Part shown: positions 31,801-34,800 of the stretch, in pieces
Layout: each line of letters starts with the position of its first letter
Numbering within the stretch: position 1 is the first letter of the stretch
NCBI GenBank assembly: GCA_051362555.1
Contig: CM120641.1
Span: 12,462,001 to 12,526,000, forward strand
DNA: 64,000 nt
Reading direction: 5' to 3'
Source: Lingula anatina
Taxonomy: Eukaryota > Animalia > Brachiopoda
Position numbers and translations under genes: made by a program
Notes under the pieces: model-generated
What the model was told of the DNA's origin: nothing
Databases searched by the model: none
Seen by the model: the letters and a program-made list of their open reading frames with translations, nothing else

Positions 31801-34800
31801 TATTATAGAGTAAGAGTTCATGTTAAACTAAAGTAAGTAAGTAGTTAAGCTGTTTACTGTTATTGGTTAAGATTTTTTTTTTTAGTGTTACACAGTTAAG
31901 AGGTTGTCGTCAGACTAATTAATGTGTTGGTTGTGTAGATGAACATGTTGACGTTTTATATAGAGTTGTAAAAGGGTTATTACCGTGTTTGTAACCTTTA
32001 CCATTTATTAATTGAAAAACAGTAAATGTTTTTCTTAGTAGGGGGTAGTTGTCAGAGAATTAAGCTCTCCTGGGGGGAAGAAAAATCGGGGCCATGCGGC
32101 AATGGCTGTTTCGGATGATTGTAGAGGAGTTTTAGGCGCTGTTGTCTTTCCTGGCAGTATTGTTCAATGACACCACTTTGCCTTAGGAACCTTTATGCAC
32201 TTATTTGTTATCATAATGAAGTGCATTGTAATTCAGACCTAGGACCGGGACAGTTCAAGGACGTATCGGGAAAACACGATTACGCAAGGATAAAAGATTT
32301 ACCTCTGAAACACCGAGAGTTACTAGTTCACAACATGCACCTGTGACAGTAGGTTTACATGAGATGTAGTACTGTATGAATATAGAATAAATAATTTTGG
32401 AAGCGTTCTAAGCGCTGTTGTTTTTCCTGACAAACTTCCTCTGACTAATGCAAGCTATGTATTCCTGGTAAATAGCTGTCTACACCAATATGTTAAAGGA
32501 GCACATAGGTAGGTGCTGTATTTACTCCAAAGCAGATGGTATTGTGCTCTACGGCATTTACTTTGGTATTTTCATCTAACCTCTCTGTTTATGAAAGTGC
32601 AAATAAACAAACACAGCAGTTATTGCGCATCTACCTAGCCAGGCAATGCCAGAACTGCCGGATTGATGATTAAGTCAAATATATAAAAAGAAATTTGTTT
32701 GTACCCCGCCCAAATCACACGGATAAGTAACTTTAACTTTTTTAATCAATTTTTACAACCAATTTTGTTTGTTGTGCACATAATTGATGATTTTTGTTTA
32801 CAATAAGTTTTTTTCTTATCTAATTTGCTTGCTTATCACATTATATTCAAGGACAGTTTTGACAGCTGGAGTTAACTATTGGAAATGGCATGGTAGTAAG
32901 GGCTAATTGCTTAAGGTTTTTTTAAAGCTGCTACTCTACATTCCGCTGTCTGCTTTATCCCACTCACGTTGACAGTGCCAGTTATGTAACCTTTAAAGCA
33001 TAGCCTTTGAAGAATAAGCAGTAGTTTATTTTCATTTGAAAAGAAGTAAATCATCAGTATATAGAAAAAGTTGAAAAATCATTTACATTTTTATCAAGAT
33101 GTTATAGATGTGAAAATATCTTTCAAGTAATTCTCTGTGATCCTGTTAATGATTATTTTTTCATTTGTGCCTATAGCATGTATCCACACCCAAGTTGATG
33201 CCTAATACTGGGCCATTTAGAGAATTCCAGCAGAGAAGAAATCTCTGTTGATGGACCATATTTGATCAAAAGCTTAGCAAACAAGTGTGCAAGTCTAAAT
33301 GTTCAACATCTTGAGAGCCACAGTGTAGTGCTTGTGTAGGCTTTGTAAGGCAAACTTTACTGTAGAGTCCATTCTTATGTGGAATTATGTATGTCTGTTA
33401 TGAAATTAAACATATAAATTATAGGATTTTGATGATAAATGAAACACAAAAAGGGAATGTAAGTTTTTGACTATTTAATGTTTTGCTAGATATTTCTGGA
33501 GAAACAAAAAGTTGAAAAGGGCCTAGATTTCTATGAATAAGAAATATTGCTGAAATTTTATTCAATAAAAGAACCACAAAGAAGTAATGATCTGTTGCCA
33601 AGTGAACTGGAAGGTATATATTTTCCATATATTTCAAGTAATTAGTCTGTTTCTAAGCTAATCACTGGGCACAGATGGTTGATTATCAAGGCTAGACAGA
33701 CTGACACAGATCTCTCTCCACTATCTTTATAATACATCTGCTCATAGCATCTTTCTACTCAGACCAGAAGCAGTTTTGGTAAATGAATCCAGGAATAAAT
33801 TGTTTACATATGGATTCCATGTTCTTGTACAATATCTCACACACGGCCTCCTGGCCTCCTCGACCCAACACACTCTCTCTCTACCTCTCTCTCTCTGGAC
33901 TAGACTTTGCTTTGGTTCTCCTGCAGTCCTTCACCTGTATAACCATCCCGCCTCTCACCTGGTATATATTACAACAGCTGCAGCAAGGCAGATGCCATAT
34001 TTGGAGTAAGCTATACATTAACAGAGCCAGAGGTTGCTTCACCTCCCATCTACTCTCACTGACTTCAAGAATCTGAAATGATTTGGACTTCAGAAAAGGG
34101 GAGACAGGTAGCAGGATTTTTACAACAAAAATTCACCCCGTTGGTTGATCAGTCATTGTGTTTGCTTAAACATTAGTGTTCGGGCCACGCTCTGCATTCT
34201 TGAGTTAAGCTTCAGCAAACAAGGCCAGATCCGAGCTGGATTTTGGTTCCCTTTTCCTCCCTCCTACCCCCCAAGAGTAAATAAGGGTAGTCGGCCTAGG
34301 TGATCATGTGTTATAAACAGTGTACTGGCTGTGAAAACTGTGTGTTAGTGTTGGTTAGTGCTCTTGGAACCTAGCTGTTTTATGCATGCCTCCTATTCTA
34401 CATATATCAGATCCTCTGCCCATTGTGTTTTTCGTATTGGTATTGTGTTTTTAAACATGACGATGCAACACAAGGATGCTTATTGCCTAAAACACTGATT
34501 GTAATACTATTACGACAAGATAACAGATATCTGACGACCGTGAGGGATCCACCAACATGGATAGCTTTACTGAACTATCAGAACTGGCTGCTACAGCAAC
34601 TACTATCAGCACTGTTGCTGTGCAAGCCGGCAGGACTAAGATAGTACTCGCGGTACTCAGGGTGAGTGTTGAAATGGTGTTTTTTAATTATTGAAAACTT
34701 TATTGGGAAACTAATAAAGAGTGAAATTAATGACAGATGTCACAGATATCAGCTGGCCACATATTTATGGGAAATATCTTTCATTGTTAAAAACTGACTT

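Follow-up and report, generated by a model that had tools for sequence, protein, structure and literature searches.

A conserved CCDC141/zormin-type exon, a probable alternative first exon, nested in the connectitin-like locus of Lingula anatina, and a predicted fold switch at its junction

The window, by which we mean the whole 64,000-nt stretch of the Lingula anatina genome analysed here, is by protein homology a SEC14-spectrin-Ig 'connectitin' locus, the titin-type kinase region of which would lie beyond the window. In tblastn the proteins P0019, P0009 and P0014 match it colinearly on the + strand, with CRAL-TRIO exons at 19599, then spectrin exons, then Ig exons to 63902. An arrangement of SESTD1, CCDC141 and TTN ('connectitin'; CG15822-zormin-sls in Drosophila) derived from a fused ancestor has been proposed, in the part of the paper available to us, by Hanashima et al., 2025 (PMC12198301), which places fused connectitin proteins in cnidarians and placozoans. 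Like connectitin, the window holds SEC14, spectrin repeats and Ig domains in the same order on one strand. The features considered below are collected in Table 1.

Table 1. Features at and around the nested first exon (positions within the window).
Feature	Position	Strand	Basis or remark
Last SESTD1-like exon	26206..26374	+	Helix C, then start of the next helix A (EEWEKIEEDLKE); phase-0 donor gtgagt; conserved in L003
Three E-boxes and one CArG box	33932..34004	.	Some 560-620 nt 5' of the ATG; a lead only; no conservation in related loci
5' UTR region, probable transcription start	34108..34556	+	X4 depth; in-frame stop 34521-34523; TATAAA at 34312
Alternative first coding exon, coding part (35 codons)	34557..34661	+	Homologue of CCDC141/zormin exon 1; phase-0 donor gtgagt at 34662
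8157-nt GT..AG intron, spliced out of the short form	34662..42818	+	13 junction reads
Common 123-nt exon	42819..42941	+	Prediction for the first ~10 residues: in the fused form the end of spectrin helix A, in the short form beta strand 3
192-nt exon, remainder of the spectrin repeat	48305..48496	+	Joint 42941>48305, 23 X4 reads
109-nt exon	48814..48922	+	Splice signals and homology; beyond the read-mapped stretch

The first coding exon opens with an ATG in a strong context (ccaccaacATGG), with ccaccaac directly 5' of it and an in-frame TAA farther upstream (Table 1), and its stop-free translation reads MDSFTELSELAATATTISTVAVQAGRTKIVLAVLR. It ends in AGG/gtgagt, and the acceptor at 42819 (tttag/AGC) is likewise in phase 0. 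An earlier note on this DNA had singled out these 35 codons by their start context and phase-0 GTGAGT donor, a description borne out by the window sequence and by RNA reads. Four of nine RNA runs, picked by species label, were mapped on 32500-48560, with 6-30% of each run read. The joint that the earlier note had predicted, from 34661 to 42819, is present in two of the four runs, in 11 X4 reads from 9 different starts and in 2 X9 reads, with 0 in X1 and X7, so that transcripts containing the exon do exist. The stretch 34557-34661 is spliced into mRNA. The first mate of the X4 exon reads always lies on the minus strand, which is what a stranded library should yield from a + strand mRNA, and the X4 reads that carry the following joint include an allele differing beside the donor. 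A chance peptide is ruled out by the junction reads together with the conservation in 23 loci and the top score of the mouse 22-mer described below, and the junction reads, the related loci and the mouse 22-mer match likewise dispose of a pure gene-model artefact and of a pseudo-exon. We note that at 34601 the X4 depth is only 2, compared to a mean of 8.3 in its bin and ~10 at the exon end, which is unexplained, and that the same position reads T>C in 4 of 4 X9 reads.

Scanning metagenome contigs gave, from 237 pattern matches, 23 related loci, which carry 9 distinct peptides and 15 of which form one close group, so that the loci do not count as independent. An upstream in-frame stop, followed by a first ATG whose -3 position is a purine and whose +4 position is G, was found in 24 of 24 cases (the 23 loci and the window), and GT directly follows the last codon in all 19 genomic loci. 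In four spliced contigs (L002, L007, L008 and L012) a stop-containing leader runs into the peptide and then into the common exon. The exon at 34557-34661 supplies a conserved start codon. In the databases, proteins of gastropods and flatworms start with the same peptide, and therefore the exon is already part of the gene models of relatives. Fifteen loci (L009-L023) have a diverged peptide of the ALSLITVQAG type with the same intron, and possibly represent a paralog or one fast-evolving lineage.

The exon probably has its own promoter, located within 34100-34550. Mean X4 depth is 8.3 in the bin 34108-34643 and zero in 32500-34107; among the read ends listed, a list taken up by repeat reads, there was no start pile-up upstream of 34557, and X4 coverage sets in between 34108 and 34643. 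An exon opened by the weak acceptor at 34527 would require an X4 depth of 38, and therefore coverage extends farther upstream. This figure bears on an arrangement in which the exon would lack a promoter of its own, being either an internal cassette with an acceptor at 34527, in frame with the donor at 26374, or a segment joined to a distant non-coding leader. There is indeed a phase-0 CAG at 34527 with an open frame to the ATG, and its pyrimidine content, 8 of 19, is near the 9 of 19 of the used acceptor at 48305. However, the required depth of 38 compares with ~10 at the 3' end of the exon, a phase-0 AG is lacking from the stretch between stop and ATG in 15 of the 20 genomic loci, the window counted among them, and is strong in none, and the Kozak context is kept in 24 of 24. 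Moreover, in the protein survey described below, none of the 83 N-terminal cases has room for SESTD1-like repeats before the peptide, and three of the four exceptions carry low-complexity extensions. We regard an exon without its own promoter as highly improbable. The cluster of CArG and E-boxes was rejected as promoter evidence, a CArG box occurring in 1 of 19 related loci and this one being 1 of 3 in the window; a sigma-70 promoter scan gave results at chance level and is irrelevant for an animal.

By homology the exon is a counterpart of CCDC141/zormin exon 1. A profile of the N-terminal region matched 510 proteins at E<=0.001, of which the best 150 were examined and 30 of these looked up by name. 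Within the best 150 of the 510, 87 align from the peptide onward, and in 83 of them it lies no more than ~80 residues from the N-terminus; of the four exceptions, three are extended by long low-complexity sequence, and the fourth, a Macrostomum model (P0021), carries the peptide at residue 1950. The 30 named matches include mouse, alligator and lamprey CCDC141, a frog protein clustered with CCDC141, Branchiostoma, Saccoglossus, Drosophila rubida, Culex and other insects, a tick, mites, crustaceans, and nematodes including the Strongyloides 'Zormin'. The peptide leads proteins of molluscs, flatworms, arthropods, nematodes, a hemichordate, amphioxus and vertebrates. There was no cnidarian or placozoan among the 30 named matches, so bilaterians set the only bound on how old the exon is in relation to the fused ancestor. 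A word-based search started from the snail N-terminus did not reach vertebrates, unlike the profile search.

The earlier note had described the peptide as the exact N-terminus of CCDC141. The homology stands, and the peptide is conserved as an N-terminus across bilaterians, but 'exact' is too strong a word: in the core of 22 residues, 13 are identical to mouse and alligator, 14 to P0032 and 11 to D. rubida, and the first 13 residues of the window peptide are unrelated. The CCDC141 start given in that note is the sequence of P0032. The mouse CCDC141 22-mer scores 65 at this exon vs 26 for the runner-up among 127,864 six-frame window positions, and the alignment of the window with mouse CCDC141 runs without a gap over 178 residues. 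The four exons that follow 34557-34661 are 57-63% identical to gastropod, hemichordate and two other proteins, and 39% identical to mouse; in a tree the window groups with gastropod and two other proteins, on a branch with support 87/81 that is not starred. In the Atlas CCDC141 was the first match (0.92, 168 features in common), which we take as a lead only.

The gene structure appears to extend the likeness. Three ORFs (P0189-P0191) that match the mouse N-terminus at 94-100% identity depart from it immediately after residue 34, continuing with Val, and this departure probably reflects reading on through a phase-0 GT donor located where the window has R35. CCDC141 exon 1 would then end at the equivalent residue, a point that the earlier note had raised, and the intron position after exon 1 appears to be common to the window and rodent CCDC141. 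The same note had asked whether a vertebrate exon of 123 nt follows, which is supported by short isoforms of mouse and hamster whose sequences diverge past residue 75, where a 41-residue second exon ends. The vertebrate counterparts of the 192- and 109-nt exons are merely compatible with the gap-free alignment to mouse. No exon coordinates for CCDC141 were found in the available part of PMC8688425.

The last SESTD1-like exon ends in GAG/gtgagt, 16,444 nt from the acceptor at 42819. We infer from comparison with homologues that this donor at 26374 is in use in Lingula anatina and splices to 42819. A locus from another animal (L003) has the same nested order, with SESTD1-like exons at 321-5954, the peptide exon at 9923-10063 and the 123-nt exon at 13008. 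Its last upstream exon ends in FEEEWHKIADQLEE/gtcagt, the window exon in QSEEWEKIEEDLKE/gtgagt, with 7 of 14 positions identical, and when the L003 tail was compared with the window, 26374 came out best among 7,098 GT sites (score 38 vs 28). The peptides read through past the upstream donor are unrelated between L003 and the window. In Babylonia (P0019) and the crinoid Anneissia (P0055), both with CRAL-TRIO, SESTD1-like repeats are joined to the common exon without the peptide, and at the same residue; P0049, from a 2,103-nt contig, is fused at this residue, also without the peptide. These three fused proteins are database predictions. The Pfam Spectrin model (PF00435) crosses the junction in P0055, P0049 and the amphipod P0081, starting from model positions 3, 8 and 6, whereas in peptide-led proteins it begins at model positions 17 (Schistosoma) and 28 (mouse). 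Our own spectrin profile reaches over the tail of the last SESTD1-like exon, from position 3 instead of 15, with no gain in score (33.9 vs 34.1 bits), and on the L003 junction it gave 15.2 vs 14.9.

These comparisons have to be set against a simpler arrangement, in which the SESTD1-like and CCDC141-like parts would be two separate neighbour genes and the '16-kb intron' would be intergenic DNA plus intron 1. Reading on past the 26374 donor (26375-26485) adds 26 more codons to a stop at 26455, followed by six AATAAA, so that an independent 3' end of the SESTD1-like part there is plausible. In the reads, which cover 32500-48560, 34661 is the only donor found; the human and the Drosophila genes are separate, as far as the available part of PMC12198301 goes; and most database models begin at the peptide. 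On the other hand, the AATAAA motifs lie within an (ATAA)n microsatellite run, the helix-A tail and adjoining GT are conserved in L003 while the read-through peptides are not related, and the fused models of a snail and a crinoid, in addition to the short-contig P0049, meet the acceptor at one and the same residue. Furthermore, 11 X4 reads enter the common exon from 34661 and 23 leave it, which leaves room for another donor, none being demonstrated. On balance we judge two separate genes to be improbable in the window.

Two observations on the upstream side are worth recording. In a locust (P0100) and an amphipod (P0081) another upstream sequence, without CRAL-TRIO, is joined at the same acceptor, possibly a third type of start. 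In L003 (4021-5954), P0019, P0055 and P0049 a long low-complexity linker separates the last SESTD1-like helix C from the helix-A tail; in the window both lie within one 169-nt exon without a linker.

We therefore return to the single locus with two alternative donors. It is likely, in our opinion, that 34557-34661 is an alternative start of a CCDC141/zormin-type unit, probably with its own promoter, and that it and the upstream SESTD1-like donor compete for the acceptor at 42819. The intron that houses the exon would interrupt helix A of a spectrin repeat. Splicing from 26374 to 42819 would complete this helix and yield a long SEC14-bearing protein, and a start at 34557-34661, followed by the observed joint 34661>42819, would yield a shorter protein without SEC14. 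In the short form the two strands of the peptide exon and the first ~10 residues of the common exon are predicted to make up a three-stranded beta cap replacing helix A. Judging from the distribution of peptide-led and fused proteins, both forms appear to have been present in the common ancestor of protostomes and deuterostomes; in vertebrates the internal start would then have been retained and the bridging splice given up, leaving SESTD1 and CCDC141 as separate genes.

The prediction comes from AlphaFold models of homologues from two species, for which we chose the alignments. For the peptide-led form of Lymnaea (30 aligned sequences), whose core is identical to the window at 20 of 22 residues, the model has strands at 19-28, 31-40 and 43-52 with pLDDT 70-74, the first two from the peptide exon and the third from the start of the common exon, and after the three strands only helices B and C. 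For the crinoid fused form (21 sequences) it has one helix at 10-40 with pLDDT 86-93, which spans the junction at 30/31 and contains the same WVRIKVH segment. The first ~10 residues of the common exon would accordingly belong to helix A in the fused form and to the third strand of the beta cap in the short form, the confidence of the cap being moderate. The earlier note had suggested two structural contexts for the common exon, and the homologue models do place it in two, a predicted helix in the crinoid and a predicted strand in Lymnaea.

It might be, instead, that the start is a true alternative one whose peptide does not fold onto the repeat, serving perhaps as a motif for partner binding or self-association, with the common segment helical or disordered. 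The sheet has a pLDDT of only 70-74, no Pfam family was found for the 35-residue peptide, and no solved structure was found that covers it: sequence and fold searches of the PDB gave spectrin-type helical repeats on top and nothing assignable to the cap, the fold search having used the whole 690-residue model and not the cap alone. Against this, conservation across phyla extends to the alternating hydrophobic pattern and to the turn at AG, which run on into the common exon, and the best model puts three strands in succession. A non-folding peptide seems to us rather unlikely.

If the peptide does fold as predicted, one may perhaps go a step further. We offer, as a tentative proposal whose chances we would put slightly short of even, that first-exon choice and splicing switch the fold at this junction, that the first exon is at least of bilaterian age, that the cap stabilised an otherwise partial repeat and so preset the breakpoint between SESTD1 and CCDC141, and that human CCDC141 keeps the cap.

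Several known systems may be compared with the window. Vertebrate CCDC141 (CAMDI) shares with it the homologous N-terminal peptide, the 41-residue second exon, spectrin repeats followed by Ig domains and, as suggested by the read-through ORFs, the intron after the same residue. Its first exon opens a stand-alone gene, whereas that of the window lies downstream of an intact in-frame SESTD1-like donor and belongs to a unit that continues into many titin-type Ig exons. Zormin is described as an isoform of sls and as the ortholog of CCDC141 (PMC12657953, available part). Its N-terminal peptide is present in Drosophila rubida, Culex and the Strongyloides 'Zormin', as in the window; the upstream CG15822 is treated in Drosophila as a gene of its own (PMC12198301, available part), and the D. 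rubida peptide is more diverged (11/22). Kalirin is a paralog in which, too, an internal start gives a shorter SEC14-less form. The kalirin (KALRN) internal promoters P1-P3 appear to match the starts of SESTD1, CCDC141 and titin, and an ancestral fusion whose internal promoters match the three vertebrate genes has already been proposed, for kalirin (PMC12198301, available part).

The SESTD1-CCDC141-titin arrangement and the promoter parallel are, then, already published. The treatment of connectitin in the accessible portion of PMC12198301 is without exon-level mapping of the boundary, a nested bilaterian first exon or a structural consequence, and we came across no paper describing a nested first exon of CCDC141 type or a beta cap in literature consisting mostly of papers outside subscription. 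The exon-level mapping and the predicted fold switch were not found in print, as far as the sources were available; parts of either may already be visible in FlyBase or AlphaFold DB. Giant muscle genes commonly have alternative promoters, and the three-gene ancestor is in print. What the window would add is that the proposed split of an ancestral titin-linked giant gene is pinned to one exon and one residue, and that living invertebrates exhibit the intermediate state, with its own start codon and an intact bridging donor, by which the model of fission by internal promoter is made testable. The predicted beta module, conserved and unannotated, would sit at the N-terminus of CCDC141, whose N-terminal spectrin repeats are reported to bind nesprin-1 (PMC12657953, available part). 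Links of CCDC141 with cardiac traits (PMC12657953) and with delayed puberty (PMC8688425) are described in the available parts of these papers. If true, a natural helix-to-strand switch governed by first-exon choice would be of interest to structural biologists.

Lastly, a few other features of the window deserve mention. The same intron contains, at 29379-32433, an LTR-type element with two identical direct repeats of at least 300 nt (29379-29678 and 32049-32348), a gag-like ORF of 316 codons at 30755-31705 that matches SCAN (E 1e-8), and an 80-nt x 4.8 tandem array at 30056-30439; no long pol-like ORF was found within it, and it looks like a recent non-autonomous insertion. A 78-nt inverted repeat at 38937-39114, matched by thousands of diverged RNA reads from other copies, resembles a MITE-like dispersed element. 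Upstream of the SEC14 exons, an 861-codon open frame at 8360-10945 with many near-identical Ser/Tyr/Gln-rich repeats is a candidate for a large N-terminal exon of the long form. Farther downstream, one exon occurs twice in tandem, at 53116-53244 (TIDWVMRIE..) and 53655-53792 (TIDWIMRAE..); both copies align with a single stretch of the snail homologues, and they are likely to be mutually exclusive exons.
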